DNA of 64,000 nucleotides from Bdellovibrionota bacterium (GCA_044360195.1 JBIKKT010000015.1:429-64428); one strand, 5' to 3'; positions 25,782 to 47,059 are shown, counted from the first letter of the stretch. Numbers and translations: made by a program. The notes: generated by a model from the sequence alone, not told the origin.

Positions 25782-25788
25782 CCAAAAA

Positions 25789-25922: not shown

Positions 25923-26125
25923 GCCCGAGTGATGACCCTCCTACGCCAAGGCTCCGGCGGGTTTTTGCAGGGGCGCGATACATATGCCCGAGTGATGACC
26001 CTCCTACGCCAAGGCTCCGGCGGGTTTTTGCAGGGGCGCGATACATTTGCCCGAGTGATGACCCTCCTACGCCAAGGCTCCGGCGGGTTTTTTGCAGGGG
26101 CGTGATACATTTGCCCGAGTGATGA
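25923..26125 (+). repeat. Three tandem 63/63/64-bp repeats, each starting with the first 13 nt of tRNA-Leu and containing a REP-like GC hairpin plus T-tract
   Basis: Units start at 25923, 25986 and 26049: GCCCGAGTGATGA-CCCTCCTACGCCAAGGCTCCGGCGGG-TTTTT-GCAGGGGCG(C/T)GATACAT(A/T)T. A fourth GCCCGAGTGATGA at 26113 continues as tRNA. Confidence 0.95.
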
Positions 26126-26150
26126 AATGGTAGACATACGGGACTTAAAA
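26113..26150 (+). pseudogene. 5' half of the original host tRNA-Leu(TAA), ending at attL
   Basis: GCCCGAGTGATGAAATGGTAGACATACGGGACTTAAAA. Its anticodon-stem strand CGGGA pairs with TCCCG of the 3' half at 47015-47019. Confidence 0.92.
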
Positions 26151-26286
26151 GAAAGTGACTGAACGTATGCCCGAGTGATGAAATGGTAGACATACAGGAC
26201 TTAAAATCCTGGGGGAGAAATCCCGTGTCGGTTCAAGTCCGACCTTGGGCAGTCTAATCAATCACTTACGGTCACTTTCTTTTAAG
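26144..26286. repeat. Perfect 16-bp inverted repeat flanking the island-borne tRNA
   Basis: CTTAAAAGAAAGTGAC (26144-26159) and GTCACTTTCTTTTAAG (26271-26286). Confidence 0.93.
26169..26251 (+). tRNA. tRNA-Leu (anticodon TAA), complete, island-borne; CCA not encoded
   Basis: Acceptor GCCCGAG/CTTGGGC-A, D-loop GG, anticodon stem CAGGA/TCCTG with loop CTTAAAA, variable arm GGGA-GAAA-TCCC, T arm GTCGG-TTCAAGT-CCGAC. Confidence 0.97.
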
Positions 26287-26303
26287 GCTCGTGCTACTGG
26301 TTT

Positions 26304-26400
26304 CATTCTCACTGAACCGTCCCGACGTACAGACGATCAACTAACCATCATTCTCACTCATTCTCATTAAGGTTCGCACAAATAACTCCGATGTTCTCAT
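26304..26400 (+). promoter_or_regulatory. Putative integrase arm-type binding sites (left end)
   Basis: TTCTCA at 26306, 26351, 26361 and 26394. ATTCTCACTCATTCTCATTAAGG closely mirrors the right-end ATTCTCACTCTGTTCTCATTGAGG. Confidence 0.6.
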
Positions 26401-26419
26401 CGAGAAGGAGCGAACTAAG

Positions 26420-27787
26420 ATGACTGAAGCTACGTTACATCATGTGTGTGAGGGGGCTGTCGTTCTCTATAAGCGAGATGGCAGCAATACAGAGTGCTGG
26501 TATGCACGATTCAAGAACCCCAAGACGGGCAAATGGAAGAAGTTCAGTACCAAGGTCACCGACCTCGAAAAAGCGAAGCAAATCGCTCAACGACAGTTCG
26601 ATGTACGGGTCGAGCTAATCAAGAACAACATCGACATTGATACGAAACGGTTCTCATACGTCGCTGATTACGTCACCAAACAGCTCCAGGCTGACATCGA
26701 TGCTGGCACTGGTAAGAAGACCTACGAAGACTACATCCGTGTAATCAATCGCTTCAAACAGTTCTTTGGAAATAAGTATATCGGCAACATCACCTATCAA
26801 GACCTTGTCGAGTACGATCAAGAGCGCACCCGCAAACTAGGTCGAAAGGCAAAGCAATCAACGGTAAATCTCGCAAACGTCGCACTGACAAAGGTGTTTA
26901 AGACAGCCATCGAGAAGGGCTGGATGCACCAGTCGCAAGCGATTTCTTTCAGAAACGATGGAAAGAGAGGGGAGCGACGACCTTACTTTGAGCTGCACGA
27001 ATATCAAAAGCTCTATAGGTTTATGCGTGAGTACGTGAAGCTAACAACTAAAGACAGCCCTCAGGGAGGCGTTAAGAACCAGACGCTCATGATTCGAGAG
27101 CTGATGCGAGACTATGTGCTCTTTCTGGCGAATACAGGCTTGCGGCACGGCACAGAGACCAAGAACCTCAAATGGAAGCACATCTCTGAGACGACCATGA
27201 ATGGACAGAAGTTCATCGTAATCGCCCTTGAAAAGGGAAAGACAGGTAAGCGTACCATCGTCTGTCGTCATAGCGTCAGAAAGTACCTAGTTCGCATCAA
27301 GGACCGATTTGCACATCTCAAAGAGCGACACCTAGGGCAGATGCTCGATATCGATGAGCCTGTATTTCGATGTCGTGACGGCTCTGTGCCGAAGGACTTT
27401 CACGGTGCGTTCAGAATCATGATGGAGAAGGCTGAGCTGCTCAATGACGTAAGCGGAGCAAGGCGCTCCCTCTACTCACTGCGGCATACCTATGCGACTT
27501 TTCAGATTATCTACAACAAACTCGACCTGCATACCCTGGCGAAGAATATGGGAACGTCCATAGCGATGCTGGAAAGGCATTACTCTCACCTAGAGGTGCT
27601 GCATAGGGCTGAGGCGTTGGCTGGCAAGGCAGAATCGAAGCCTAGGAAGGTTAAATCAGGTGAAACTCGTATAATCCAGCTTAATAGTGACTTGCAGGCT
27701 ATAAATTCGGGGCATGATACCGAGGTCCTGACGACTGATGGTTGCGCTAAGCCCCAGATTTACGGTCCAGGGAGCACCTCGAAGTGA
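26420..27787 (+). CDS. Tyrosine recombinase / phage-type integrase
   Basis: N-terminal arm-binding-like beta domain (WYARF...KFSTK), catalytic NTGLRHGTE, GKTG, YSLRHTYAT, KNMGTS, RHYSH. GGAG RBS. Confidence 0.95.
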   Translation: MTEATLHHVCEGAVVLYKRDGSNTECWYARFKNPKTGKWKKFSTKVTDLEKAKQIAQRQFDVRVELIKNNIDIDTKRFSYVADYVTKQLQADIDAGTGKKTYEDYIRVINRFKQFFGNKYIGNITYQDLVEYDQERTRKLGRKAKQSTVNLANVALTKVFKTAIEKGWMHQSQAISFRNDGKRGERRPYFELHEYQKLYRFMREYVKLTTKDSPQGGVKNQTLMIRELMRDYVLFLANTGLRHGTETKNLKWKHISETTMNGQKFIVIALEKGKTGKRTIVCRHSVRKYLVRIKDRFAHLKERHLGQMLDIDEPVFRCRDGSVPKDFHGAFRIMMEKAELLNDVSGARRSLYSLRHTYATFQIIYNKLDLHTLAKNMGTSIAMLERHYSHLEVLHRAEALAGKAESKPRKVKSGETRIIQLNSDLQAINSGHDTEVLTTDGCAKPQIYGPGSTSK

Positions 27788-27949
27788 ATGTTCTCCTCGG
27801 GAATGGGCTCATTGACCAATCCCCTGGCATTCGAGGGTGTCTCACTGCGTGAATTACCTGTTCGTTTGAAGCTGGACGTCCAGCAAAACTGTCAGTAAAC
27901 TCAAATGCTTCGGTCATTCTCACTAGTTGACCCAATTATCTGAGGAAAA

Positions 27950-30697
27950 ATGTCAGAGAGCGAGTGGCGCACAAGAAAGAGTCGGATTGATACCAAGCTC
28001 AAGGGGATGAAGCCCGCTTGGAAGATCATCCCGTACTCGTCAGATCTCTCCACTGACACCTTGCATCAAGTTGCAGTTGAGGAGTTCCCAACTTCAAATG
28101 GACCTGCTGATTACGCTCTCTTCATCAAGGGTAAACTGCTCGGCATAATCGAGGCGAAGAAGGTTTCCGTCTCTCCAGGTAATGTCCTTGAACAAGCCAA
28201 GCGTTATTCGGAGGGAGTTGCTCAGCCAGTGCCTCACTATGGGAGCGGGGCAAGCTCAACGCAGTTCAGTAAGTACAAGGCTCCTTTTATCTACAGCACT
28301 AACGGGGAGGTCATCTGGTTTGCAGATGTTCGTGATCCGAAGTTTCTCTCTCGTGAGCTATCTCGTTTCCATTCTCCTGATGCTCTCGAAGAGATGTGGA
28401 ATACGAATAGAACGCAGGCAGCACTCGACCTGGTAGGCAACCCAGTCGAGTTTCCAAGATTACGCCCCTACCAGCGTGACGCAATAACAGCCGTCGAGAA
28501 TTCTCTCTCCGGTGGTAGGCGAAATATGTTGGTAGCAATGGCAACAGGAACAGGCAAGACCTTTACCACGGTTTCTCTCTGCTACCGTCTTCTTGCTTCA
28601 AAGTTTGCGAGGCGGATTCTATTTTTGGTAGATCGAAGAGCCCTGGCAGCTCAGAGCTCGCTTGCATTTCATACTTTCGATACGCCTCGGGGGAACAAGT
28701 TTAATCAGGAATATGAGATCTATTCTCAGCGATTTCGGCGTGAGGACTTAGAGGACGAGGAGGACAGCAAGAAAGCGGCTTTTGATCCACAGGTGTTACC
28801 AGAGGATTATTTAACGCAGCCCCAGGCTAAACATACCTTCGTGTATGTATCGACCATCCAACGAATGGCTATAAATCTCTTTGGTCGTGAGGGGGCATTT
28901 TCTCAAGGTGCATCGGATCCAGACTATGAAGATGATGTCGATAAGTTAGACATTCCGATCCATGCATTTGACGTAATCATCGCTGACGAATGTCACCGTG
29001 GCTACACGGCTCAAGAGGAGGGGGTCTGGAGGAAAGTACTCAATCACTTCGATGCGGTGAAGATAGGTCTTACTGCAACACCAGCGAAACATACCCTTTC
29101 ACTATTTGAAGAGGTCGTTTACGAGTACACCACCGAGCAAGCTATCGCCGATGGATACCTTGTCGATTACGAAGCCGTTGCGATCTCTTCGGGAGTGCGG
29201 ATGAACGGTGTCTTCTTAAAAGAGGGCGAGGAGGTCGAGTTTGTTGATACGGGCAAGGGGACAAAGCAGTATCATCTTCTTGAAGATGAGCGTGAGTTTG
29301 ATGCGTCTAAAATTGAACGTGATATCACCGCACCCGATAGCAACGAAAAAATTATCAAGGAAGTTGCCAAATATGCCCACGAGCATAACGAGAAATTTGG
29401 GCGCTTTCCTAAGATTCTAATCTTCGCAGCAAACGATCTTCAACACACATCCCATGCCGATCAGTTAGTTCGTCTGTGCAGAAAGGTCTTTAATCAAGGT
29501 GATGATTTCGTGATGAAGATCACTGGAAACGCTAACGTGGATCGACCTCTCAAGCGCATTCGGGAATTTCGGAATCGACCCAATCCGAAAGTGGTTGTGA
29601 CAGTAGATATGCTCACTACAGGCGTTGATATTCCATCGTTAGAGTTCATTGTCTTCATGAGACCTGTGAAGTCTCGTATTTTATGGGTGCAGATGCTTGG
29701 TCGGGGAACCAGGCTCTGTAAAGACCTGGCACCGTCAAAAACTCACTTTACTATATTCGATTGTTTCGACGGTTCTTTGATTGATTACTTTCGGGATGTC
29801 ACGGACTTCGAGATTCCACGACCAGAGGTACAGAGCGTGGAGACGAAGCAAGTTATTGAGAACATCTACCAGAATGTGGACCGAGAGTATTTTAGCAAGG
29901 TCCTGGTAAAGCGATTGCGCCGCATTGAGCGTGATATGTCAGGCGATGCATATCAGCAGTTCTCAAAGTTCATTCCAAATGGTGATGTCGGGGCGTTTGC
30001 TTCTGAGCTACAGAGGCGCCTAAAGGATGATTTTACTGGAACCATGCGGGTCCTCAGAGACCCAGGCTTTCAAGAGGAACTGACTTCGTACAAACGTGCA
30101 ATAAGAACCTTCATCGTAGCCCCTGGGGTTGAAGACACGGTTACCTCACGCAAACTCTTCAAGGTAGGCGACAAGAGCCTGAAGCCTGAAGACTACCTCG
30201 TCGCATTTAGAAGGTTCGTGGTTGAGACTAAGAACGAGATAGAAGCGTTGCAGATAGTTCTTGAGAGACCAAAGAAGTGGAGCGTGAAGGCACTATCAGA
30301 GTTGCGTGAGAAGCTCACACTTGGTGGCTTTCCTGAGTCCGATCTTCAGAAGGCACATGAAATCGTTAATCACAAGGCTCTCGCCGATATCATTTCAATC
30401 GTGAAGAGGGGCGCTGAAGAAAACCGACCACTCTTAACTGCAGAGGAAAGGGTAAGGTCGGTTATGGCGACTTTGCGTTCTGAGAGTGCTATCTTCAATG
30501 GTAAGTTTACAGATGATCAAAGCAAGTGGCTTCAGTACATTGAAGAGCACCTTGTTAGAAACCTCTCCCTCTCAGAGGATGATTTTAACGAGATCCCCGT
30601 TCTCGCAGACCACGGAGGTCTCCGGAAAGCTCAAAAGGTCTTCGGTGTTCAGCTCTCTTCACTGATTGAAGAGATAAATTTTAAGTTGGCAGCATAG
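27950..30697 (+). CDS. hsdR: Type I restriction enzyme R subunit
   Basis: Nuclease ADY..IIEAKK, Walker A MATGTGKT, DECHRG, GLTATP, MLTTGVD, QMLGRGTR and an EcoEI-R-like C-terminus. Confidence 0.96.
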   Translation: MSESEWRTRKSRIDTKLKGMKPAWKIIPYSSDLSTDTLHQVAVEEFPTSNGPADYALFIKGKLLGIIEAKKVSVSPGNVLEQAKRYSEGVAQPVPHYGSGASSTQFSKYKAPFIYSTNGEVIWFADVRDPKFLSRELSRFHSPDALEEMWNTNRTQAALDLVGNPVEFPRLRPYQRDAITAVENSLSGGRRNMLVAMATGTGKTFTTVSLCYRLLASKFARRILFLVDRRALAAQSSLAFHTFDTPRGNKFNQEYEIYSQRFRREDLEDEEDSKKAAFDPQVLPEDYLTQPQAKHTFVYVSTIQRMAINLFGREGAFSQGASDPDYEDDVDKLDIPIHAFDVIIADECHRGYTAQEEGVWRKVLNHFDAVKIGLTATPAKHTLSLFEEVVYEYTTEQAIADGYLVDYEAVAISSGVRMNGVFLKEGEEVEFVDTGKGTKQYHLLEDEREFDASKIERDITAPDSNEKIIKEVAKYAHEHNEKFGRFPKILIFAANDLQHTSHADQLVRLCRKVFNQGDDFVMKITGNANVDRPLKRIREFRNRPNPKVVVTVDMLTTGVDIPSLEFIVFMRPVKSRILWVQMLGRGTRLCKDLAPSKTHFTIFDCFDGSLIDYFRDVTDFEIPRPEVQSVETKQVIENIYQNVDREYFSKVLVKRLRRIERDMSGDAYQQFSKFIPNGDVGAFASELQRRLKDDFTGTMRVLRDPGFQEELTSYKRAIRTFIVAPGVEDTVTSRKLFKVGDKSLKPEDYLVAFRRFVVETKNEIEALQIVLERPKKWSVKALSELREKLTLGGFPESDLQKAHEIVNHKALADIISIVKRGAEENRPLLTAEERVRSVMATLRSESAIFNGKFTDDQSKWLQYIEEHLVRNLSLSEDDFNEIPVLADHGGLRKAQKVFGVQLSSLIEEINFKLAA

Positions 30698-30712
30698 TGT
30701 CAGGAGTTCTCG

Positions 30713-32161
30713 ATGGCTGATGTAGTAAATAAATTATGGGGCTTTTGTCACACTCTGCGACATGACGGCGTTGATTACGGGGACTATATCGAGCAGCTAA
30801 CGTACCTGCTGTTCCTCAAGATGGCTGAGGAGAAGGGGATTGAGATCCCTTCATACAAGGTTCAGAAGACTGGAGAGACGAGAGTATGCGATTGGAATAG
30901 CCTGAAAGTTCTCTCTGGGACGGATCTTGTTGATCATTATGGAGAAATATTGCGCACACTGCGAGAAGCCAAGGGTCTCTTGGGTGAGATTTTTAGTCAG
31001 GCGATGCCTCGATTCAATAACCCAGTCAATCTAAAGAAGCTCGTCAATCTCATTGATGAGGAAGATTGGGCTGCTATGGATGTGGATGTCAAAGGTGCTG
31101 CCTTTGAGGGGCTGCTTGAGAAAGCTGCAAGTGAGGGGAAGAAGGGAGCAGGGCAATACTTCACTCCAAGGCCTCTCATTCAATCAATCGTTAATGTCTT
31201 AAAGCCAGATCCAACGACATCAAGAGATTTCACCATCTGTGACCCTGCCTGTGGAACTGGCGGTTTCTTGATCTGTGCCTATGAGTGGCTCAACGAGAAA
31301 TTTAAAGGTGCCTTTGATCGTGATGTCACCAAGCGCATTCGCACCAAAACTTACTTTGGGCAGGAGCTTGTAGCACGACCTCGAAGACTTACTCTGATGA
31401 ACCTCTATCTTCATGGTATCGAACCGACGATCTATCTCGGAGATAGCATTTATGAACCCGATAGAGGGGAAAGATACGATCTCATTCTTTCTAACCCTCC
31501 TTTCGGTACCAAGGGAGCTAATCAAGCCCCTGAGCGTCAAGACTTTACGGTTGAGACAAGCAGTAAGCAGCTTAACTTTGTTCAGCATATCATTGCCATC
31601 TTAAAACCTGGTGGTCGTGCTGCAATCGTTCTCCCTGATAACTGTCTCTTTGAAGATAAAGCAGGGGAGGTCTTCAAGATCGTGATGGAAGATTGTGACG
31701 TGCATACGATCCTTCGACTTCCACGAGGAACCTTCACCCCATATTCACAAGGCGTGAAGGCAAATGTGGTCTTTTTACAGAAAGGAAAGAAGACTGAGAA
31801 CGTCTGGATATATGACTGTCGAGCAAATATTCCAGGCATTACCAAGAAGGACAGACCCCTGACGCTTCAGCACTTTGAAGAATTTGAAAAATGCTACGGC
31901 TCTTCACCTGATGGCTCATCAAAGCGTAAAGACCTTGGTGAGGAGGGCAGGTTCAGAAAGTTCACGATAGATCAGATCAAAGAGCGAAATTACAAGCTTG
32001 ATATTACATGGCTTAAAGATGAGTCGCTTGAAGATGATGATGATTTACCACCACCGCAGGACTTGGCGACAGAAGCTATTACTGAGCTTGAGGCAGTGGT
32101 GGATGATCTTAGGGAGATTATTGCTTCTCTTGAGGGGGAAAATGGAGAGGCAAGAGCATGA
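30713..32161 (+). CDS. hsdM: Type I R-M N6-adenine methyltransferase
   Basis: GQYFTPR, DPACGTGG (motif I), NPPFG (motif IV). Confidence 0.97.
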   Translation: MADVVNKLWGFCHTLRHDGVDYGDYIEQLTYLLFLKMAEEKGIEIPSYKVQKTGETRVCDWNSLKVLSGTDLVDHYGEILRTLREAKGLLGEIFSQAMPRFNNPVNLKKLVNLIDEEDWAAMDVDVKGAAFEGLLEKAASEGKKGAGQYFTPRPLIQSIVNVLKPDPTTSRDFTICDPACGTGGFLICAYEWLNEKFKGAFDRDVTKRIRTKTYFGQELVARPRRLTLMNLYLHGIEPTIYLGDSIYEPDRGERYDLILSNPPFGTKGANQAPERQDFTVETSSKQLNFVQHIIAILKPGGRAAIVLPDNCLFEDKAGEVFKIVMEDCDVHTILRLPRGTFTPYSQGVKANVVFLQKGKKTENVWIYDCRANIPGITKKDRPLTLQHFEEFEKCYGSSPDGSSKRKDLGEEGRFRKFTIDQIKERNYKLDITWLKDESLEDDDDLPPPQDLATEAITELEAVVDDLREIIASLEGENGEARA

Positions 32162-33612
32162 CTTTGGTAGTACCCTTTGAGGAAATATTTCAAAGCGAAG
32201 TTGGACTTCTAGCAAAGCACCTATCTTGGCAGAGAGTTGAGTTGGGCTTAGTGGCGACAGTACAAAATGGCTTCGCATTTTCATCGTCAAAGTTCAGCAA
32301 GGACAAGGGGATCCCTTTGATCAGAATAAGGGATCTGCAACGATCAAAGACCGAAACTTTATTTGACGGATCATTTGATGAAGCGTATCTAGTTAATGAC
32401 GGTGATATTCTTGTCGGTATGGATGGCAATTTTACTTGCGTACGCTGGCAGGGGGGACAAGCTCTACTTAATCAGCGGGTTTGTCGAATTTTACCAAGAA
32501 CTGACTTTGTTGATGCTGCGTTTCTACGACTGGCACTACAAGGTTACCTATCTGCAATCCAGAAGGCGACCTCAAGTACAACGGTCGGGCACTTGTCGTC
32601 AAACGATATCAAGCGAATACCATTACCACTACCACCCCTCAATGAACAAAAACGCATAGTCGCAAAGCTTGATAAACTCTTGCCCAAGGTAGAATCATGT
32701 AAGCAGCGACTTGAGAAAATACCGACGATATTGAAACGCTTTCGGCAGTCGGTGCTTGCTGATGCGGTTTCAGGAAAGCTTACCCAATCCCACAGGCACA
32801 ATGTAGGGTACACGGCTTTACCGCCCAGTGGATTTGAGAGGTTTGAGCTTCCCATGCTACCCACGGGATGGTCGTGGGACTTGCTTGAAAATGTTGCCGA
32901 TTCCCAGGGAGGAAATGCTTTCAAAAGTACTCGCTTTATTGATCACGGCAAGAACCAGGTGTTGCGGATTGGGAATGTTAAGAGTGGAGCCGTCGATCTG
33001 GTGACGTCTCCAGTCTTCATTAAAGATGAGGACGCAAACGAGTTTGCTAGATATGAAGTTAGAGAAAACGACCTGCTCATCTCTTTGACTGGCACTAAAT
33101 ACAAGCGAGACTATGGTTTTGTTTGTCGGGTTGGTCACTGTGATAAGCGCCTGTTTCTCAATCAGCGAGTTGGGAGATTGAGGACGAAGGCTTCGGTTTT
33201 GCCAGGCTTCTTGCAAATGTGGCTTAGTTCGGAATGGTATCGAAATATTTTCTTCGATGGAGAAACGGGAAACGTAAATCAGGGTAACGTGGGGATGGAT
33301 GCAATTCGTAAGGCTCCGTGTCCAGTTCCGCCGATTGAAGAGCAAAATCTGATTATACAAATTATCGAGGACTTTCTGGAAAAGGCTAGGCTTGGCGAAA
33401 AGGCTGTGAGTGGGGCGTTTCGAATCCTTGACCGGACGAGTAGTAGCATTCTTAGTAAAGCATTTTCTGGCTTATTGGTTGAGCAAGATGCTTCCGATGA
33501 GCCTGCCTCGGTCTTGCTTGATCGTATAGGATCTAACCTTGGTCTTAATTCAAAAAAGTCGGTTTCTAGAAAGCGTAAGGCTGAAAAAGAGTCGCAATCG
33601 TTGTCGGTGTAG
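32158..33612 (+). CDS. hsdS: Type I R-M specificity subunit
   Basis: Two TRDs with conserved PLPPLNEQKRIV and PVPPIEEQ; C-terminal KAFSG.L...DEPASVLL.RI. Confidence 0.95.
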   Translation: MTLVVPFEEIFQSEVGLLAKHLSWQRVELGLVATVQNGFAFSSSKFSKDKGIPLIRIRDLQRSKTETLFDGSFDEAYLVNDGDILVGMDGNFTCVRWQGGQALLNQRVCRILPRTDFVDAAFLRLALQGYLSAIQKATSSTTVGHLSSNDIKRIPLPLPPLNEQKRIVAKLDKLLPKVESCKQRLEKIPTILKRFRQSVLADAVSGKLTQSHRHNVGYTALPPSGFERFELPMLPTGWSWDLLENVADSQGGNAFKSTRFIDHGKNQVLRIGNVKSGAVDLVTSPVFIKDEDANEFARYEVRENDLLISLTGTKYKRDYGFVCRVGHCDKRLFLNQRVGRLRTKASVLPGFLQMWLSSEWYRNIFFDGETGNVNQGNVGMDAIRKAPCPVPPIEEQNLIIQIIEDFLEKARLGEKAVSGAFRILDRTSSSILSKAFSGLLVEQDASDEPASVLLDRIGSNLGLNSKKSVSRKRKAEKESQSLSV

Positions 33613-33657
33613 GACCATTTGTGGAGTCTGTTGTCTACCGCTCTAACCAGAAATGAC

Positions 33658-34599: not shown

Positions 34600-34729
34600 G
34601 GGGTTCATGGGTTTGTGCGTTCGCCATGGGGAGTAGTTTAAGAGGAGGCGTGCCTTGAAGTCCACGTCCAAGTGGTGAGGTGTTGTTCGTCCTGGGACTG
34701 GCCGATGAGAGTATGTTCAAAGGTCGTTA

Positions 34730-34937: not shown

Positions 34938-35158
34938 GATTTGAATTCCGACCTGATCTTGAGCGACGTTTACAGCTTGCCATGGGGCAGCTGACCTCTA
35001 TAAAGTTGAGTTAACTGGTCGCAATTCCGTGCTTTTGGGGATATTTGTTGACCATGGATATCGGGCTCTCGGCTTATTCAAAGCGGATATTTCTTCATCT
35101 GTAGAGAAAATCCGCATCGTCGTTACCTTGTGAGAGCTGGTTTGAAAGAGGATTGACG

Positions 35159-39116: not shown

Positions 39117-42100
39117 GAGTGGTGATTCTCGTTTCTTGATTGCTTTGCTAGCTGAAGATCTTCACCTGATAGCTTCAGATAATGGACTGCACATATGTTA
39201 CATGGGCTCAGATCGCAGTATCGATTTGAGCAACAGAGCGGATTGGCGGAAACTGGGTTCGACGACTAGTCAAGGCCAGCTTTTGGCGCAGTCACTCGAC
39301 TTTCTGCTTCAGGAAGACCTTCTTAGGCTGGACAATCAAGGGCTTCATCTTGATTACGTGAACCTAAAGCACCTTGCTGAGGTCGGAGTCGACTTCATAG
39401 AAAAGTTGGTACCATGGGCTCCCTTTTCGATTCACGTTCGTGGTTCAGGAGTAATCGGTTCGAATGGGTTTCGTCTATCGTATGAGTTCATGCTTGGAAA
39501 GCTGCACTCGTTTCCTGTGAGGTTTGGACCATTTTTGATTAGGGGAGACCGAGCATACCGTTTGTCTCCGACTAACTTTGACATTGTTGAGATTGTAGAT
39601 TCGTTTAATAGCCTCAGTCAGAACGAGAAGGATAAAGAGGCCTCTCTGCGCTGTATATCTCGGATAAAGGAGTTGATGGGCAGCGAAGGGCTGGATTCCT
39701 ACTTGGACCGAGAGGGAATCGTGATTCCTCAGAAAGTTAAGGTTGAACTCTCTCTTGAATCAAACGGATTCGTGTCTTTATTTCCAGGATTCGAGGGAGT
39801 GTCTTCTGAGAGAATGAGACATGAGTTCTTTCGACTTGGAGAGGTTCAAAGAATTTACGATCTGCCGACGGATGATGGTCATCGGGTCAGAGTTCTCATC
39901 TCAGAAGAGATCTCTGCAATTCTGTCAGATATGCAGAAATATCGGATGGTCGGTGGTGCTACGAGGGATGCCGTCCTTGCCAATGTTATTGAGTGTTTTT
40001 CCGACGGCGTAAATCGAGATCTGATTGAGCTTGTTGATTTTGCTCCAAGAGTAAAGGGTATTTGTTCCGTCCCGGAACGCTCTCAACTTCTGTTGAATAC
40101 AGAGAGTCGGTGTTGGGAGGGCGTATCGGAGGAGGATGTTGGGCTCGCAGCAGCTGCGGAGAAGCCTTTAATACTAAAGGTGTTTTCTGATGAAAATGTC
40201 GAGATTCCGATGTCCTTCAAAGAGTTCAGGAGTTTCGCTCGGCAAGTTGCAGAGGCGCAGGCGCAGGATTCGGCGCAGGTTCGCTTCGGAAGTAGCAATG
40301 TGCTCATCAACGATGCTCTAGTGGAGCAGATTAAAGAGATTGAAAAGAGATTAGACCGACGCAAGGCTGGTGGAATCGATATTAAGCAGGAAGCCCGAGA
40401 CTGTCAGGTTTTGGATATTCATCAGAATTTCGATCAAACAAGTTACTCCGAGGGGTCTTTGGATAGTATTGAGTCTCTATGGAACCAGCCACAGATACCA
40501 AAAAGCCTCCGGAGCACAAGGGTTAACAAAAGGGGGGAGACCGAGTCTTTTCAGCTGAAATCGCACCAGTATGAGGGAGTGCTGTGGCTTCAAAACCTCT
40601 TCCGCAATCGGTTGCGGAGACGGGGTTGTCTTCTAGCCGATGATATGGGCCTTGGAAAGACGCTCCAGGTGCTCACATTTTTGGCCTGGTGCATTGAGTC
40701 TGGATATAGGAAGGGCCTGGGAGAAGATATCCCACCATACGAGCCGATATTGATTGTAGCTCCTATTATTCTTTTGAAGAACTGGCAGACGGAAATGGAG
40801 GGGTTCTTTGATCATGATATCTTTTCTCCGTCTGTAACTTTGTACGGTTCGACGCTAAGACAGTATAGCCTTGATTCAAAGAAGATGGGCAGGGAGACGA
40901 AAGACGGCAAACAGAGGCTGGATCTCGATCGAATTCGTGAGAATCGAATCGTGATAACGAACTACGACACGGTCAAGAACTACCAACATAGCCTAGCGAA
41001 AGTGCCATGGTCTATTATTGTGACAGATGAAGCGCAGGAGTTTAAGATTCAGAACCAGAAGTCGGACGCTCTTAAAGCGCTCAAGGCTCACTTCCGAATT
41101 GTGGCAACGGGTACTCCTGTTGAAAATAGATTGCTGGATTTGTGGAATCTTGTTGATTTTATGCACCCTGGGTCGTTGTTGGGCTCTGCAAAAGGTTTTT
41201 ATGAAAGATTCGAGAAGGATGTTGCTAATAAGTCAATCGAGGAAAAAAAGGTTCTCACCCGAGAGCTGCGTGAGGCTCTGTATTATGACAGACCAGATGC
41301 CTTTGTAATGCGGAGAGATAAGGAAAGCCAACTGAAAACGGAGCTTCCCTCAAAGATCGAACATCGCATCACCTGTCCCATGCCTGAATCCTTTAAAAGA
41401 ATGCACCTTGATATCGTTCAGCAGTTCAAGGAGAGCATGTCTGATGTTCATCACTTTACCCTGATTGACTCACTGAAGAAGCTGTATCTTCATCCTCGTC
41501 TATTAGAAAGACCGCAACCCGTCGATGACATCAAGTCTCTAGTCGGAGAGAGTCCCAAACTTGAAGCCTTAATAAAGACTCTGGAAGATATTCGATCGAA
41601 GAAGGAGAAGGTGCTGATCTTTACCGAGTATGTCGACCTGCAGACAATGCTTGCTGAAGTTCTTGGAGTTTATTTTGGGCTTAAAATTGAGATTATCAGT
41701 GGTTCCTCAATAGTGGAACGAACACGAGTTTCTGAGCGTCGGCAACAGGCGATAGACGACTTTGAGGCAAAGGAAGGTTTTAACATTCTAATCCTTTCGC
41801 CAAAGGTGGCGGGAGTAGGGCTTACGATAGTTGGTGCGAACCACGTGATTCATTATCAGCGGTGGTGGAATCCAGCGAAGGAGGCTCAAGCCACCGACCG
41901 AGCTTATAGAATTGGACAGAAGAAAGATGTTCATGTGTATTATTTTATAATCACAGATCCTGCGGGCGAGGTCATTTCTTTCGATCAGACTCTGGATAAG
42001 TTACTGCTTGAAAAGCGGGAGCTAGCAAAAGATTTCTTGATCCCAAGGGAAAGCGTTGAGATCAGCACGAGCGAGGTAGCAGATAAAGTTCAGGGTGAAA

Positions 42101-42627
42101 ATGCTGCGGAATCCTCGATTCGACAAGGAAAGAGTCTAGCCATTGTGAAAACGTTGGGAGATGTCGATAGGCTTTCTCCCCACCAATTCGAGGCCTTGAT
42201 TGCGCTAATCTACAGGCGTAAGGGGTTGCTTACGGTTCTAGGCCCGCTGACTAATGACGGAGGAGCCGATTTGTTGATTGTGGGTTTGAGTGACCTCGTA
42301 TACGTGCAATGCAAGCACTCTAGTTGCCTAACTCAGCAGACCGCTCGGGCCGTTCGAGATTTAGAGGAGGCTCCCGATGTATATCGTAGAGATGTGCTAT
42401 CTACCAATCTCAGGAGAAGGATGCCTCAAAGAGTTGCCTGGACAAACTCTACGTTTGACCAAGAGACACGTGCGATGGCAGCTCGTCATGGGATTGAGCT
42501 TCGGGAAGGTAAACATCTGGAGGCGGAGCTCAAGACTGCAGAGATTCACCTTGGGGCCATTCTTGAGATGGAGGCTGAGAGGTTTGGAAGCCTTAAAGAT
42601 ATACGGGCGGCTCTAAAGCACCTGTAA
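39109..42627 (+). CDS. zorD: Zorya protein ZorD (SNF2 helicase/ATPase plus C-terminal Mrr-like nuclease)
   Basis: LLADDMGLGKT, DEAQ, TGTPVEN, WWNPAKE.QATDRAYRIGQ; C-terminal FE.LIA...DGGAD...QCKH. Probable GTG start at 39109. Confidence 0.93.
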   Translation: MAKSGDSRFLIALLAEDLHLIASDNGLHICYMGSDRSIDLSNRADWRKLGSTTSQGQLLAQSLDFLLQEDLLRLDNQGLHLDYVNLKHLAEVGVDFIEKLVPWAPFSIHVRGSGVIGSNGFRLSYEFMLGKLHSFPVRFGPFLIRGDRAYRLSPTNFDIVEIVDSFNSLSQNEKDKEASLRCISRIKELMGSEGLDSYLDREGIVIPQKVKVELSLESNGFVSLFPGFEGVSSERMRHEFFRLGEVQRIYDLPTDDGHRVRVLISEEISAILSDMQKYRMVGGATRDAVLANVIECFSDGVNRDLIELVDFAPRVKGICSVPERSQLLLNTESRCWEGVSEEDVGLAAAAEKPLILKVFSDENVEIPMSFKEFRSFARQVAEAQAQDSAQVRFGSSNVLINDALVEQIKEIEKRLDRRKAGGIDIKQEARDCQVLDIHQNFDQTSYSEGSLDSIESLWNQPQIPKSLRSTRVNKRGETESFQLKSHQYEGVLWLQNLFRNRLRRRGCLLADDMGLGKTLQVLTFLAWCIESGYRKGLGEDIPPYEPILIVAPIILLKNWQTEMEGFFDHDIFSPSVTLYGSTLRQYSLDSKKMGRETKDGKQRLDLDRIRENRIVITNYDTVKNYQHSLAKVPWSIIVTDEAQEFKIQNQKSDALKALKAHFRIVATGTPVENRLLDLWNLVDFMHPGSLLGSAKGFYERFEKDVANKSIEEKKVLTRELREALYYDRPDAFVMRRDKESQLKTELPSKIEHRITCPMPESFKRMHLDIVQQFKESMSDVHHFTLIDSLKKLYLHPRLLERPQPVDDIKSLVGESPKLEALIKTLEDIRSKKEKVLIFTEYVDLQTMLAEVLGVYFGLKIEIISGSSIVERTRVSERRQQAIDDFEAKEGFNILILSPKVAGVGLTIVGANHVIHYQRWWNPAKEAQATDRAYRIGQKKDVHVYYFIITDPAGEVISFDQTLDKLLLEKRELAKDFLIPRESVEISTSEVADKVQGENAAESSIRQGKSLAIVKTLGDVDRLSPHQFEALIALIYRRKGLLTVLGPLTNDGGADLLIVGLSDLVYVQCKHSSCLTQQTARAVRDLEEAPDVYRRDVLSTNLRRRMPQRVAWTNSTFDQETRAMAARHGIELREGKHLEAELKTAEIHLGAILEMEAERFGSLKDIRAALKHL

Positions 42628-42670
42628 CGTTGATCCATTAGTGTGACACCGAGAGTGGGGACGCCATTCA

Positions 42671-42946
42671 CTAAACACGAAGGGCTTTCTCAATGGCCGT
42701 CAATTCTTCAGCTACTCGATAGAGAAATTGCACGACCTGTAGGTGTTGCTCATGCTTGGTGAGAACTATGTTGATGTGGATCTCCATACCATCTTGGTTA
42801 ATGTCGAAGAGCTTTGAGAGAGATGGACTGTAAGCATCTTCACTAAGGGGGGCTTCTCGTTTATGGAACTGTTTGAACTTCATTAGGGCCATCTCTGATC
42901 TTTTCTCTGTAAGGCTAGTCGGGCATTCAATCAACACGTTACTCAC
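42671..42946 (-). CDS. Small hypothetical protein (91 aa)
   Basis: GTG start overlaps the stop of the upstream ORF; third gene of the small-ORF operon. Confidence 0.6.
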   Translation of the reverse strand: MSNVLIECPTSLTEKRSEMALMKFKQFHKREAPLSEDAYSPSLSKLFDINQDGMEIHINIVLTKHEQHLQVVQFLYRVAEELTAIEKALRV

Positions 42947-43134
42947 TGCTCCACAATAATAACTAGAACGTCTCGATAATCTTTGATCGCTAAATCAAGC
43001 TCTCTTATAACCTTGGCTCGCAATCGTTGCTTCTTGGATATTTCCAATGCTCGTTCGATCTCATGTATGTAGAGTGCCTTGGGTTTTGTCTCTGACAGCT
43101 TTCTAGCAGCTTCTTGTTTTGTGGTTTTCGACAT
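42943..43134 (-). CDS. Small basic hypothetical protein (63 aa)
   Basis: GAGGA RBS before ATG; helical, K/R/E-rich. Confidence 0.65.
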   Translation of the reverse strand: MSKTTKQEAARKLSETKPKALYIHEIERALEISKKQRLRAKVIRELDLAIKDYRDVLVIIVEQ

Positions 43135-43168
43135 AGATCCTCGTTCACATTAAAGGTGATACCCCGTG

Positions 43169-43408
43169 CTAGTAGTCACGCTCATGAAGATATTTATCGA
43201 GCTTTAGTTTCGTGGCTTTCAGTGATTCCTGCTGTTGAAGGAAGGCGTCGAGACTAAGAAGCTCTTCATCAATCTTGGCTTTGAGAAACATTCTGATAAG
43301 GGCTAGCCGTGTGATGCGTCTGGATTGTGCGAGCGTGTTCAGATCTTCAATCCATTGAGGTTCTAATAAGAGTCTTAGCTGAGTGAATTTAGGCTTCTTT
43401 ATAGACAT
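43169..43408 (-). CDS. Small protein, ribbon-helix-helix (CopG-like) DNA-binding candidate
   Basis: FTQLRLLL (beta) - WIEDLNTLAQSRRI - TRLALIRMFL pattern; AAGGAAG RBS. Confidence 0.65.
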   Translation of the reverse strand: MSIKKPKFTQLRLLLEPQWIEDLNTLAQSRRITRLALIRMFLKAKIDEELLSLDAFLQQQESLKATKLKLDKYLHERDY

Positions 43409-43456
43409 CGGTTTTTCTTCCTTAATGACTTTTATTTTGTATCTACACTGTATAGC

Positions 43457-43464
43457 TATTTATA
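43457..43464 (-). promoter_or_regulatory. T4-late-type promoter box TATAAATA (candidate) upstream of the small-ORF operon
   Basis: Exact TATAAATA on the minus strand, 48 nt before ATG 43408, with no sigma70 -35 at 17-nt spacing. Confidence 0.5.
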
Positions 43465-43495
43465 AGGGTTCTAATCTGAAAAGAGATCTCAGAAG

Positions 43496-43529
43496 CATCG
43501 TGATTCTCACGATGACGAGCTTCGCTCGT
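43496..43529 (-). other. Two abutting perfect hairpins with GAA triloops on the minus strand
   Basis: Plus strand CATCGTGA-TTC-TCACGATG directly followed by ACGAGC-TTC-GCTCGT. The minus strand contains GCGAAGC. Confidence 0.8.
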
Positions 43530-43584
43530 GGTTTAGTTTGAGTTCTGTTTGTAGGGCCTGTTTTCAAATCTTTTAATGACTTTC

Positions 43585-44005
43585 ATAGTGTGCGGTAGTT
43601 TTGAGATACACTTCGCCCATCAAAGGCGAAGATGATGATGTGCGTATAGCTCATCGATACTTTGTGTTTGCACGTAGCTCCTTTTGAGAGCGAGGGCGGT
43701 TGGGCGGTCTCCTCGTAAGTGCAGCTCGCTGGTGTCCTAGCGGCAAGCATCATCAAAGCCAACACAACGACTTCGAGTGCTTTGCGAGTTCCAAGTGTAG
43801 GGATTGCTCGCATCGTGATGGATCGCATTTTCATTATTAAAGCCACCTGTGGTCGTTCTACGCCGTGAAAGTTCCATCTTACTTTGGGCACTTGGACAGG
43901 TGTGCGACTTAGGGGAGTCAATGGAAGTATGACTGCAAGATCTTATTGGGTCGCTATTTTCGAAACTCAGCTCAGTGCTTTATTAGTGGCTGAGTCGAGT
44001 TTCTG
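43585..44005 (-). ncRNA. Candidate large structured non-coding RNA (~420 nt)
   Basis: At least ten nested stems and two pseudoknot-type pairings (see findings). Begins just downstream of TATAAATA. Confidence 0.6.
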
Positions 44006-44010
44006 TACTC

Positions 44011-44018
44011 TATTTATA
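44011..44018 (-). promoter_or_regulatory. T4-late-type promoter box TATAAATA (candidate) upstream of the structured RNA
   Basis: Exact TATAAATA on the minus strand, 7 nt before the first stem, with no -35. Preceded by a GCCTC/GAGGC hairpin (44033-44049). Confidence 0.5.
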
Positions 44019-44244
44019 CAATTTTAAAGCTCGCCTCGTTTATGGAGGCAGATTTTTCAATTACATATTAGGGCCGGCTATTTGGAATGGTCTGTCTCCT
44101 CAGTCTCACTACGGGGTCGCAAGAGAGTTCGGCGTGATGGTAAGGAAGCGTTCCGATAAACTCGCTGTTCTATGGATCCATTTTAGGTGTCTTCAAATCA
44201 GCTCTCCCCGATTGGTAACGCATTCCTTACCTAGTGGCTTTTAG

Positions 44245-44886
44245 TTAGGACGATCTGACGAGCACTGCATGATGCCCGAGATTGTCAAGATTACCCTCAG
44301 CCATTATTCCCTTGAGCGTGGCCAACTGTTCTTGGGTCAGTCGTCCGAGCATCATGGAAAGCATGTATCGGTCGCAGGCAACCCCGCAATGCTCCGTAGG
44401 TTCAACAAGTCGACCATGCCCGTCTCTGTAGAATTTTACCTTGAGGTAGAGCTCTGGCTCTGCCGGCGGGTAGAGATCTATGAAAGGCTTTGGATTGACT
44501 TCGACTACCTCCGCAACGAAGAGGCCGAAAGAGGAGAAGGCAGACCAATTGCCAAGCACATGGCAACCCACAAGGGCTGCTACGGAGGTCTTTAGGGATA
44601 AATCTACAAGGTACGTGACGATTGTGTGATCTCTTCGACGCAGCTCATCTGACCATTCGTGAGTTATGAGAAAGGGAGTACTTTGGCTCTCGCTAATCTC
44701 GTTGCACACCTCAATTATTTTATCCCGAGTAAACCCTCTGAAAAATCGTAGAGGGATCTGTATTCCTTCTTGTTGGCTAGACGTCGGCATATTGTCGGCT
44801 CCAACCTCAAGGGATCGGTCAATCAAGTACTGAAGCACCTGATTTCGTACTCGATCTCTCTTTGAATTAATCGTTTTCTTAACCAT
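44245..44886 (-). CDS. Hypothetical protein (~213 aa)
   Basis: Long ORF; ATG 44886 has AAAGG upstream (ORF track starts at 44982). No recognised motif. Confidence 0.65.
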   Translation of the reverse strand: MVKKTINSKRDRVRNQVLQYLIDRSLEVGADNMPTSSQQEGIQIPLRFFRGFTRDKIIEVCNEISESQSTPFLITHEWSDELRRRDHTIVTYLVDLSLKTSVAALVGCHVLGNWSAFSSFGLFVAEVVEVNPKPFIDLYPPAEPELYLKVKFYRDGHGRLVEPTEHCGVACDRYMLSMMLGRLTQEQLATLKGIMAEGNLDNLGHHAVLVRSS

Positions 44887-44993
44887 ATTATTAACCTTTA
44901 AAAAATACAGAGCGTTAGGGCTAACGTGCTGTATGTATTGTTTAATTAAGGGGTTAGTGCACAAACTATTGTTCATGCACATACCAAGCTTGA

Positions 44994-45115
44994 AAACTTG
45001 CCGTTAAGTTTACTTGTAAACGTGACGACCAGTTTCTATACTATAATAGTAACAGGGTTTGTTTACATTGTCCACAAAATAGTGACAGTGTTTGAGAAAT
45101 ACGAAAATCTCGTAG
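44994..45115 (+). promoter_or_regulatory. Putative res site and promoter of the resolvase
   Basis: TTGTAA(45014-19)-N17-TATACT(45037-42); short inverted repeats AAACTT/AAGTTT, TGTAAAC/GTTTACA and TACGA/TCGTA in an AT-rich tract. Confidence 0.45.
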
Positions 45116-45132
45116 TTTTAAGGGGTTAAGAT

Positions 45133-45819
45133 ATGAATGTTTTCGCATACCTAAGGGTAAGTACCTCAAGACAGGCTGAGGATGGGCTCTCTATAGAAGT
45201 TCAGGAGCAGCAGCTTGAGGCTTATGCGAACTTGCACAACCTCTCTGTAAACCGATGGCTGAGAGACCGTGGAATCTCTGGATCCATACCCCTAAGTGAT
45301 AGACCTATGGGAAAGCAGCTCCTAGAGGAGGTGCGCTCTGGTGACGTGGTCATCGCAGCTAAGTTGGATCGTATGTTCCGAAATGCCAGAGATGCTTTGA
45401 ACACTTTGGAAGCCCTCAAGAACAAGGGGGTAGCACTGCATTTCATCGATCTTGGGGGAGATGTCTGTAATGGTATCGGCAAGCTAGTCTTTACGATTCT
45501 TTCGGCTGTGGCAGAGCAAGAGCGGAGCAGAATTAGGGAGCGCATCTCTGAGGCAAAGAAGCAGATGCGAGACGAGAACCGTTATCAGGGTGGGAAGATA
45601 CCCTTTGGATATCGAGTTAATTCTGAGAACCAGCTAGTAGAGGACGAGCTCCAGCAGAGATGCATCATCTTCATGCGGGCGAAGCGAAAAGAGGGGTTGG
45701 CTTACAGAATGATTAGCGACCTCTTAAGAAAGGAGCTCGGCGTTGCTTTATCGCATTCGGGTATACGGAAGATCCTCATCGGTGAGAGACGAACCGATGA
45801 TGCAGATAATCAGAAATGA
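45133..45819 (+). CDS. Serine recombinase (resolvase/invertase family)
   Basis: YLRVST..Q, D.GISG, KLDRMFR, AVAEQER..IRER, GG.IPFGY. Confidence 0.95.
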   Translation: MNVFAYLRVSTSRQAEDGLSIEVQEQQLEAYANLHNLSVNRWLRDRGISGSIPLSDRPMGKQLLEEVRSGDVVIAAKLDRMFRNARDALNTLEALKNKGVALHFIDLGGDVCNGIGKLVFTILSAVAEQERSRIRERISEAKKQMRDENRYQGGKIPFGYRVNSENQLVEDELQQRCIIFMRAKRKEGLAYRMISDLLRKELGVALSHSGIRKILIGERRTDDADNQK

Positions 45820-45890
45820 CCCATTATCTATAGGGTTAATGACCCATAGTGGCGGTTGAGAAATACGGCTTTGGCTGTTAAGGTCCTCAC

Positions 45891-46808
45891 ATGGCACCAT
45901 TCAACGAAGACCTCCCTAGATCCAAGCAAGTCGGTAAGAAAGCAATTTTTACTGCGCTTACTATTCTTAAAGAGAATGGTGGTCAGATGCGTGGTCGTGA
46001 AGCAATCGATGCTGTTGGTCGACGTCTTGATTTGGATAGCTGGGCACGGGAGCGTTATTCAAAGAGTGGCTATGTTCGATGGGAGTCGATTCTTCATTTC
46101 GAGACTATTGCTTGCGTCAAAGCTGGGTTCCTTATTAAGAAAAAGGGTTCGTGGTTCCTTACTCCTGAGGGCGAAGCAGCGATTGCGCTAGGGGAGGACT
46201 CTCTTTATTCGAAGGCAGCAGCGGCATACGCAATATGGAAGGCAAGTCTCCCTCGTGAAGTAGAGCAAGTTCAAACCGAAGAGGAGTCGTCTGCTGAAGA
46301 GCAAGCGATTGTCGATACAAACAAGGCGCTGGAGCAAACCGAGCAGCTCGCATACGATCAAATCGAAGGCTTCATTGATCGATTGAACGCCTACGAGTTT
46401 CAAGACCTCGTGGCAGCATTGTTGCGAGGGATGGGCTACTACACTCCGTTTGTGGCTCCGACGGGCAAGGATGGTGGTGTTGATATCGTTGCATATCGAG
46501 ATCCACTCGGTACTCAGACGCCTCGGATCAAAGTCCAAATCAAGCATCGAGACTCGACGGCACGAGTCGATGAGGTGCGACAGTTAATGGGATTACTTCA
46601 GAAAGACGGAGACGTTGGCATTTTCGTCTCTACGGGTGGTTTCACTCCAGACTGTCGTTCAACAGCCCGAGGTTCTCACGTTCATGTGGAGTTGATAGAC
46701 TTGAGTCGCTTTATCAATTTGTGGCAAGAATTTTACCCGAAGCTGACAGACGAGGATAAAGCTCGACTTCCATTGGTATCGATTTACTTCTTGGCTCCTC
46801 AAGACTAG
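45891..46808 (+). CDS. mrr: Mrr-family (type IV) restriction endonuclease
   Basis: N-terminal winged-helix (Mrr_N-like; KAG...KKG.W.LT.EG) and catalytic FQDLVA.LL..MGY, DGGVDI, VQIKH, FVSTGGFT. Confidence 0.92.
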   Translation: MAPFNEDLPRSKQVGKKAIFTALTILKENGGQMRGREAIDAVGRRLDLDSWARERYSKSGYVRWESILHFETIACVKAGFLIKKKGSWFLTPEGEAAIALGEDSLYSKAAAAYAIWKASLPREVEQVQTEEESSAEEQAIVDTNKALEQTEQLAYDQIEGFIDRLNAYEFQDLVAALLRGMGYYTPFVAPTGKDGGVDIVAYRDPLGTQTPRIKVQIKHRDSTARVDEVRQLMGLLQKDGDVGIFVSTGGFTPDCRSTARGSHVHVELIDLSRFINLWQEFYPKLTDEDKARLPLVSIYFLAPQD

Positions 46809-46815
46809 CTGGAAC

Positions 46816-47003
46816 GTTCTCATCCTATTCTCAGCTCGTGATTTTCTTGCTTCCTCAGAGTGCCTAAACTACATTCTCACCCTGCGAACTCAAAAAGAGC
46901 AGCAAGTGAGAACAAGCATTTACATCGGACTATTCTCACTCTGTTCTCATTGAGGGAGTGCGCTTGTAGGTAGTTGAAACGAGGCTGGAATCAGTTCGCA
47001 CAA
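46816..47003 (+). promoter_or_regulatory. Putative integrase arm-type binding sites (right end)
   Basis: TTCTCA at 46817, 46828, 46874, 46933 and 46944, plus inverted TGAGAA at 46907. GTTCGCACAA (46994-47003) is also present at the left end (26372-26381). Confidence 0.6.
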
Positions 47004-47007
47004 GCTT

Positions 47008-47059
47008 CTTAAAATCCCGGGATCGAAAGGTCGTGTCGGTTCGAGTCCGACCTTGGGCA
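47008..47059 (+). pseudogene. 3' half of the original host tRNA-Leu(TAA), beginning at attR
   Basis: CTTAAAA-TCCCG-GGATCGAAAGGTC-GT-GTCGGTTCGAGTCCGAC-CTTGGGC-A. Confidence 0.93.

Follow-up and report, generated by a model that had tools for sequence, protein, structure and literature searches.

In canonical tRNA islands, attP carries the 3′ (rarely the 5′) part of the tRNA gene and one junction regenerates the gene; a crossover in the anticodon loop is typical of one class of integrases. An integrative element is also said to have been described by Zhao and Williams in 2002 that reverses the usual orientation of the target gene and supplies only a 5′ half with a promoter. Alternatively, the target can be given up and replaced. 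In several actinophage groups (Fionnbharth, LeBron, Gaia and others) a tyrosine integrase inserts the phage into a single-copy tRNA gene through a core of 8–17 bp and the tRNA is not rebuilt; the cognate phage tRNA is needed for survival of the lysogen, as was shown genetically under the term tRNA-dependent lysogeny (Guerrero-Bustamante & Hatfull 2024, PMC10865867). Prophage Lj965 of Lactobacillus johnsonii is cited in that paper as an older hint. The pelagiphage HTVC019P splits the host tRNA-Cys in two, its own tRNA-Cys being "likely used instead", and metagenome fragments with the order integrase, intact tRNA-Leu, 3′ end of tRNA-Leu are mentioned in the same preprint (bioRxiv 10.1101/410191). 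A similar tRNA replacement by phage-related sequences is reported for Sinorhizobium meliloti (PMC11476347, PMC12429752). The disrupt-and-replace principle is already known. Here we describe a 20.9-kb integrative defence island of a Bdellovibrionota bacterium (GCA_044360195.1 JBIKKT010000015.1:429-64428; these 64,000 nt are the window analysed) that very probably entered the single-copy host gene for tRNA-Leu(TAA) by tyrosine-integrase recombination in the sequence CTTAAAA, supplying a whole tRNA of its own. An initial annotation of the window had proposed this arrangement and pointed to whole-gene complementation in temperate phages, a precedent that the actinophage paper (PMC10865867) provides.

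The source genome, labelled G000 below, is a draft of 128 contigs with a completeness of 97.87%. tRNAs were called by ARAGORN, repeats came from a repeat search of the window, protein families were assigned through Pfam, NCBIfam, PADLOC and PHROGs, and the remaining features were read directly. Motifs were counted over 36 genomes of the family, with the reversed motif as control. Features lie on the plus strand unless stated otherwise.

From left to right, the window holds the end of aspS, a 63-bp tandem repeat, a 5′ half of tRNA-Leu(TAA), a spacer, a whole tRNA-Leu(TAA), 20.7 kb of other DNA and a 3′ half. The displaced host 5′ half (GCCCGAGTGATGAAATGGTAGACATACGGGA, nt 26113–26143) comprises the acceptor strand, the D arm and the anticodon-stem strand CGGGA. 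It is followed by the left-junction core CTTAAAA, which is the anticodon loop (attL, nt 26144–26150), and by the 18-nt element spacer GAAAGTGACTGAACGTAT (nt 26151–26168), where the P′ side starts. At the right junction the core recurs (attR, nt 47008–47014) and runs into the displaced 3′ part (nt 47015–47059), made up of TCCCG, the variable arm GATCGAAAGGTC, the T arm, the acceptor strand and A73. Read together, nt 47008–47059 are CTTAAAA-TCCCGGGATCGAAAGGTCGTGTCGGTTCGAGTCCGACCTTGGGCA, with TCCCG, the variable arm GATC-GAAA-GGTC and the T-loop TTCGAGT. The repeat search finds the 5′ copy as a duplication of 44 nt at 93% and the 3′ copy as one of 61 nt at 84%, and pattern searches of the whole window return exactly two 5′-type and two 3′-type pieces of tRNA-Leu. 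The insert (nt 26151–47007) is low in GC, with 0.44–0.51 within nt 26001–47000 against 0.50–0.57 outside. The bases flanking CTTAAAA differ, being GAAAGTGAC after the left core and CACAAGCTT before the right core, and the core is the sole stretch common to attB and the inferred attP. Since attachment site and tRNA have only these 7 nt in common, too few for rebuilding the tRNA at attL or attR, neither junction restores the gene; ARAGORN calls no tRNA at either of them. The stems, variable arms, T-loops and 18-bp distance given in the initial annotation are all correct when read against the sequence.

Before the 5′ half, nt 25923–26125 consist of 3.2 tandem copies of the 63-bp unit. Each unit opens with 13 nt that copy the 5′ end of the tRNA (GCCCGAGTGATGA) and continues through a small GC hairpin, a T run and ~20 nt that are normally found before the tRNA. 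One unit of this type also precedes the tRNA in G012, G017 and G038. The unit looks like a duplicate of the upstream region and these 13 nt, and it is amplified in G000.

The empty site is found in G038, a genome of the same genus without the island. Its intact 83-nt tRNA-Leu(TAA) equals the 38-nt 5′ half and the 52-nt 3′ half of the window joined through a 7-nt overlap, at 83 of 83 positions; nt 26113–26143 are identical to its first 31 nt and nt 47015–47059 to its end, so the attachment site overlaps the host tRNA gene. This tRNA sits between aspS (97% amino acid identity) and a homolog of the gene at nt 47111–47896 (77%), and both genomes are colinear upstream, as far as the loop. The initial annotation had reassembled the two halves into a perfect tRNA-Leu(TAA) with only a 7-nt overlap and had expected the CGGGA/TCCCG gene in an island-free relative; both are borne out by this closest relative, and the fit of the halves is more than coincidence. 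Anatomy and empty site together uphold the central claim, that the island was inserted at the anticodon loop, that the host tRNA-Leu is unrepaired at both junctions and that a whole tRNA-Leu(TAA) is supplied. In G038 a degenerate scar, ...GGTAGACATACGGGA-CTTAAAG-GAAAGTGACTGAACATAC, followed by the 13-nt and hairpin unit, lies ~65–105 nt upstream of the intact tRNA (locus L089), which indicates that the island-free relative was itself visited earlier by this element family.

The whole tRNA-Leu(TAA) is called by ARAGORN at nt 26168–26252 as the only tRNA of the window and is best read as nt 26169–26251 with A73. With the stem CAGGA/TCCTG, the variable arm GGGA-GAAA-TCCC and the T-loop TTCAAGT, it differs from the host tRNA at 9 of 83 positions, mostly in compensating pairs, including 28/42 and the arm positions 46–48/53–55. 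In G000 this allele is a physical part of the element block. The tRNA recurs, identical or nearly so, in G001, G003, G009, G010 and G012, and the identical spacer, tRNA, inverted repeat and arm region also adjoin other host 5′ types. For instance, the 5′ halves in G010, G011 and G015 are of the type GCCCGGATGGCGAAATTGG..., whose acceptor stem would not pair with that of the element tRNA; the 3′ half matching this type, in the island-free G014, G035, G041 and G018, has a different acceptor stem. As spacer, tRNA and downstream block are constant while the host 5′ halves vary, the whole tRNA gene is element DNA.

Among the 43 tRNAs that ARAGORN calls in the G000 assembly, the element copy is the only one with a TAA anticodon, a check that the initial annotation had proposed. 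TTA is used 9.2 times per 1000 codons and for 8% of the Leu codons in 25 long host open reading frames (ORFs) of the window, and UUA decoding in G000 would depend on the island tRNA. As far as the assembly goes, the tRNA count and codon use are consistent with this proposed dependence. The penalty on deletion proposed with it is weaker than was thought, as viable deletion products occur in G005, G011, G012 and G004; the scar states of G005 and G011 show that UUA decoding can survive loss of the island, and the idea of addiction is weakened accordingly. After integration, transcription of the island tRNA would start at the promoter of the host tRNA and read through the dead 5′ half.

The integrase gene follows the tRNA (nt 26420–27787). 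It encodes a tyrosine-family integrase of 455 aa (phrog_1 integrase, E 8.5e-34; SAM-like N-domain in Pfam) with 2975 homologs at E ≤0.001, many of which, at 40–50% identity, carry PF00589. An alignment of 25 members shows no variation at R242, K274, R355 and Y388. Y388 aligns with the nucleophile region of Tn1549 Int (6EN0) in a profile search of PDB sequences, a weak match (E 0.002), and phmmer gave no match of the integrase among PDB sequences. Tyrosine integrases use a short core flanked by repeated arm motifs, and the motif RTTCTCAY is present on both sides here. Four copies lie in the P′ arm (nt 26305–26400), and the P arm (nt 46816–47007) has five (nt 46816–46950) and then GTTCGCACAAGCTT, which adjoins the core. 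The window holds 24 copies against 9.6 expected, a count reached in 0 of 100 shuffles, and 9 of the 24 lie no more than ~250 bp from the two junctions. This is the pattern expected of arm-type sites on the attP arms, and the copies at nt 26305–26400 are candidate sites of this kind. The 45 nt before the right core are identical in G003 and G021, one base off the window (44/45), and G021 belongs to another family of the order.

An orphan second P arm of ~84 nt with 2 mismatches is present on contig C81 of G000 (~12530–12613; L182, 1440–1520). It holds two RTTCTCAY and GTTCGCACAAGCTT-CTTAAAA, with an AbiEi/AbiEii pair before it and non-tRNA sequence and greA after it. The G000 genome contains no second close integrase, and the orphan arm may have been left by a related element that used a secondary site outside tRNA genes. 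On the same contig, two ECF sigma-factor ORFs with identical Pfam scores (L183, 7971–8621 and 10215–10865) flank a DUF4143 ATPase gene and may be a duplication around an insertion.

These features can be joined into a sequence of steps. The tyrosine integrase encoded in the window would carry out the crossover within the 7-bp anticodon loop CTTAAAA, by which the host 5′ half would remain at the left junction and the 3′ half would be shifted by 20.9 kb. The island tRNA, 18 bp inside the left junction and directly upstream of the integrase gene, would compensate for the loss, and the host gene would be whole again after a precise excision. Core, spacer, whole tRNA, inverted core and spacer, arm sites and integrase constitute a portable backbone on which the anti-phage cargo varies. 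Since the incoming tRNA has the same anticodon stem-loop, it becomes the next target, and elements nest.

The tRNA is bracketed by a 29-nt inverted repeat. Its left arm (nt 26138–26166) is formed by core and spacer, and its right arm (nt 26264–26292) contains an inverted copy of them, GTCACTTTCTTTTAAG, 83% complementary to the left. The repeat is seen in every complete element and its two arms co-vary, with the versions GAAAGTGAC in G000, GAAAGTGAT in G045 and GAGATGAGGTGAA in the element of G020, whose integrase is 56% identical. The loop letters of the right arm vary (TTTTGAG in G017 and L098, TTTGAAG in L097); they are not strictly conserved, and therefore a second crossover site is unlikely. 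In the RNA fold of nt 26113–26300 a stem encloses the cloverleaf (-66.9 kcal/mol, z -4.7), as expected from any inverted repeat. The repeat could serve in the precursor as a leader-trailer stem, or in attP as paired sites for protein binding. A single-stranded hairpin attP in the style of CTX or integrons was rejected, as both arms are at the same end of the integrated element. It is conceivable, though rather doubtful, that core, spacer, tRNA and inverted core and spacer form a promoter-less cassette read from the host tRNA-Leu promoter, in which the repeat acts as a leader-trailer clamp at the RNA level. The inverted repeat would keep the two termini of the incoming tRNA in contact; the defunct host 5′ half, being on the same transcript, could pair with the 3′ strand of the new tRNA, and the clamp would prevent this misfolding. 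If this clamp exists, the module would be a platform dedicated to integrating defence islands by tRNA swap, and nesting and recombination between copies would turn over the allele of an essential tRNA across the whole genus.

The arrangement recurs in the family. The loop and spacer motif CTTAAAAGAAAGTGAC is present in 18 of the 36 genomes and the reversed control in none. Sixteen of the 18 have a tRNA 5′ half, loop and spacer directly ahead of an element-type tRNA. The inverted repeat and arm region follow in nine of these 16 (G000, G001, G003, G009, G010, G017, G037, G040, G045), the contig ends too early to tell in four (G007, G008, G015, G047), no island is behind in two (G005, G011), and in one (G036) the element tRNA is itself reinterrupted at the loop. 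On contig C4 of G036 (L035, ~1440–1600), the element-type 5′ half, cut at the loop, runs into the unrelated TCCCAAGCGCC..., and an intact tRNA-Leu(TAA) is on another contig. The host-side 5′ halves are of at least eight different sequences; together with the differing bases on either side of CTTAAAA, they agree with the earlier proposal that attB and the inferred attP share only 7 bp.

The initial annotation had also suggested a survey of homologous integrases for an adjacent whole tRNA. All six integrases of at least 55% identity for which upstream sequence is available (G000, G009, G020, G045, L097, L098) have a whole tRNA-Leu(TAA) 131–219 bp upstream on the same strand, and five of the six loci also have the 5′ fragment. 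Of the 80 loci that match best in the wider family, mostly at 36–45% identity, 37 have a same-strand tRNA within 1.5 kb upstream (Met 19, Phe 12, Leu(taa) 5, Gln 1), and a match resembling a 5′ fragment is found in only four (L095, L098, L100 and L129, the last at tRNA-Met). In L129, a Burkholderiales locus with an integrase 37% identical, the tRNA-Met 5′ fragment (~1058–1092) lies 125–159 nt upstream of an intact tRNA-Met, which may be a related architecture with a displaced 5′ half at another tRNA.

In G012 a single contig holds both junctions, at a distance of 13.7 kb. Its integrase N-terminus matches that of G000 at 98% identity (246/252) against 83% for AspS, and its cargo, with an Eco57I-type methylase, a T5orf172/ResIII protein and a SocA-like antitoxin, differs from that of G000. 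These differences, together with the P arm found in the other family represented by G021, point to horizontal spread. The G012 integrase (L091, 2461–5947) stops after residue 252, adjoining opposite-strand istA/istB of the IS21 family, and the element is probably immobilised. G017 had been considered as a minimal unit of integrase and tRNA; the candidate was rejected, as the 369-aa ORF between its junctions encodes a periplasmic binding protein and not an integrase.

Elements are also nested. Two successive 5′ fragments precede the tRNA in G008, G009, G037 and G045, three are found in the metagenome contigs L175 and L178, and L177 shows a minimum of two. The inner fragment of G009 and G037 comes from the tRNA of a different element, with the spacer CGGAGGAAGTAAACGGTTGGGCATAT; an incoming tRNA has thus been used as the next target. 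The occurrence of the element tRNA beside at least eight host 5′ halves and the nested fragments imply that the tRNA travels with the element and is reused as a target, and the suggestion that the new tRNA offers a fresh attB is supported by these seven cases. The fragments and spacers of G008 are identical, and a 56-bp tandem duplication could have produced them instead of nesting; judged from their sequences, the differing fragments and spacers of G009, G037, G045 and L175 could not be mimicked in this way. Right junctions were sought by one pattern in G000, G008, G009, G045 and G037 and found only in G000 and G045, so nesting is documented from the left side only. At the start of contig C29 of G008 (L094, 1–110 and ~1060–1230), several decayed tRNA-Leu 3′ fragments stand in a row, the picture expected to the right of a hotspot that many integrations have used.

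Decay products are seen as well. G012, G004 and G044 keep the downstream block of the element and have no 5′ fragment, a state that fits recombination between the 5′ copies 56 bp apart. Once these 56 bp of 5′ fragment and spacer are lost, as in G012 and G004, the locus is indistinguishable from a canonical island, and therefore the strategy may be under-counted by island-mapping tools. Similarly, the state of G005 and G011, with fragment, spacer and tRNA and no island, agrees with the tRNA having recombined with the displaced 3′ half.

Several observations weigh against entry of the island by disruption and replacement of the host tRNA, and some would suit other explanations. Scar states exist in G005 and G011 and, further upstream, in G038; G012 and G004 look canonical; and the CAGGA/TCCTG allele occurs in some island-free genomes of the genus (G046, G016). 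A canonical island starting at nt 26200 and carrying the usual 3′ half could be read from this, in which the intact gene consists of a host 5′ half and an island 3′ half and the upstream 5′ half with its spacer is an old scar. However, the gene before insertion would then pair CAGGA with TCCCG and contain an A-C mismatch, whereas G038, with its nearly identical AspS, has CGGGA/TCCCG and no fragment and spacer directly before the tRNA. Furthermore, whichever host 5′ fragment and flanks adjoin the element, its spacer and the 5′ half of the intact tRNA remain constant, and the host type of G010, G011 and G015 differs in its acceptor stem. We regard a canonical island beside an old scar as improbable. 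Assembly is another concern, since a draft contig may collapse or mis-join tRNA-Leu repeats of different metagenome strains. Twenty-four lake or freshwater DNA runs were found; over nt 24000–28000 the Logan contigs of four of them cover the flanks and the integrase and leave ~25952–26185, with its repeats, unbridged. Loose Logan contig ends at nt 26224 and 26257 are the right junction of the same island. Nevertheless, the same junction order is present in 16 genome assemblies and five metagenome contigs, the repeats are just 38–61 nt, below the usual read length, and the GC step coincides with the junctions, so that we give an artefact very little credence. The chance is equally slim that the island is moved by a small serine recombinase encoded near its right end (nt 45133–45819). 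This 228-aa protein is of the resolvase/invertase type and does not have the large C-terminal domain of serine integrases, whereas the module of tyrosine integrase, tRNA and arm motifs is the part conserved across elements with different cargo, and a 7-bp core with repeated arm motifs on its flanks fits tyrosine integrases.

The remaining objections concern the steps of disruption and replacement themselves. No empty-site or circular (attP) junction of the G000 population was found in the Logan contigs of the four runs, which break at the repeats and speak neither for nor against misassembly or excision. A probe of 25 nt made to the predicted circle junction had 0 matches in the metagenome contigs, of which only five hold the element motif used as control, every one of the left-junction type, and this negative therefore carries little weight. 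The window integrase has no direct match to the Pfam catalytic model PF00589, only to SAM-like N-domain models, and Y352 and T379 are likewise invariant in 25 of 25 aligned integrases, at the places of the two histidines in the catalytic R-K-H-R-H/W-Y set of most tyrosine recombinases; integrase activity is accordingly an assumption. Pfam and PHROGs identified no excisionase among the small island ORFs. A scan of nt 25750–26450 for sigma-70 promoters gave nothing promoter-like or usable upstream of the 5′ half and the tRNA pieces, and a second TAA tRNA could be located in a gap of the 128-contig draft.

The cargo of the island is directed against phages. A type I restriction-modification system (nt 27950–33612) has its hsdR, hsdM and hsdS genes together (Pfam; PADLOC REase_I, MTase_I, Specificity_I) and is followed by a 326-aa ORF (nt 33619–34599) without a match in Pfam, NCBIfam, PADLOC or PHROGs. 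The genes zorA, zorB, zorC and zorD stand in a row at nt 35153–42627 and make up a type I Zorya system (PADLOC ZorA1, ZorB1, ZorC1 and ZorD1, ZorD at E 1.6e-210; Pfam EH_Signature, SNF2 and Mrr_cat), with NCBIfam scores below the equivalog cut-offs. On the minus strand, nt 42671–44982 hold five ORFs of 91, 63, 79, 112 and 245 aa without a Pfam or PHROGs match; NCBIfam has none for the 245-aa ORF and PADLOC none for the 245- and 112-aa ORFs. One of the five might encode a directionality factor. The serine recombinase (PF00239; phrog_125 DNA invertase) is followed by an Mrr-type restriction endonuclease at nt 45891–46808 (PF04471, PF14338; PADLOC PDC-S02 / type IV REase). Phage structural, lysis or replication families were not found among the island ORFs by Pfam, and PHROGs returned integrase and invertase only. 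With no phage genes found and a cargo of restriction-modification, Zorya and Mrr, the island works like tRNA-dependent lysogeny, yet it is not a temperate phage and its host is not a lysogen.

Our study suggests that the strategy is not rare in this group of freshwater bacteria, since half of the sampled family genomes (18/36) bear the mark of the element. Integrase, 7-bp core and tRNA form a compact natural integration module of ~1.7 kb that needs near-zero homology with its target, which helps explain how one backbone occurs across hosts whose tRNA-Leu alleles differ. The inverted repeat that brackets the tRNA, with its co-varying arms, is a testable feature.

Compared with canonical tRNA islands as mapped by Islander (PMC4383910), the locus is alike in its tyrosine integrase beside a tRNA, its tRNA target and the displaced 3′ fragment at the far end. 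It is unlike them in that neither junction is a tRNA and the intact gene is a separate third copy, the target gene not being regenerated. The duplicated 5′ part of the tRNA at the integrase-proximal end recalls the element reportedly described by Zhao and Williams; unlike the latter, the island supplies the whole gene and both host halves are displaced. The closest likeness is to tRNA-dependent lysogeny as laid out for the actinophages, with a tyrosine integrase, an attB in a single-copy tRNA gene and a core too short to rebuild it (8–17 bp in the phages, 7 bp in the island), and the Gaia phage also targets tRNA-Leu (PMC10865867). In contrast to these temperate phages, the island has no phage genes that were found and its cargo is anti-phage systems. 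Its tRNA is 18 bp from the crossover and bracketed by the inverted core and spacer, its core is exactly the anticodon loop, and elements nest serially. The requirement for the tRNA comes from genetics in the actinophages and is proposed for the island. As in the accounts of HTVC019P and Lj965, the host tRNA is split into two non-functional parts and an element-borne tRNA of the same kind is proposed to take over; these two are phages of other hosts, the replacement tRNA of HTVC019P is elsewhere in the phage genome, and neither an inverted repeat nor nesting is described for the pelagiphage or Lj965 in the accounts compared. A literature search, with most subscription journals outside its reach, found no report of disrupt-and-replace in non-phage or defence islands. 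As far as that search reaches, the new aspects are a defence island that is not a phage, a 7-bp core equal to the anticodon loop, a tRNA set 18 bp from the crossover within an inverted repeat whose arms co-vary, the prevalence in a single family, and nesting. The disruption of a tRNA by an element that brings its own is thereby extended beyond a few temperate phage groups to an island that is not a phage and carries anti-phage systems, in hosts of a different bacterial phylum, with related loci in Bdellovibrionota and some in Pseudomonadota.

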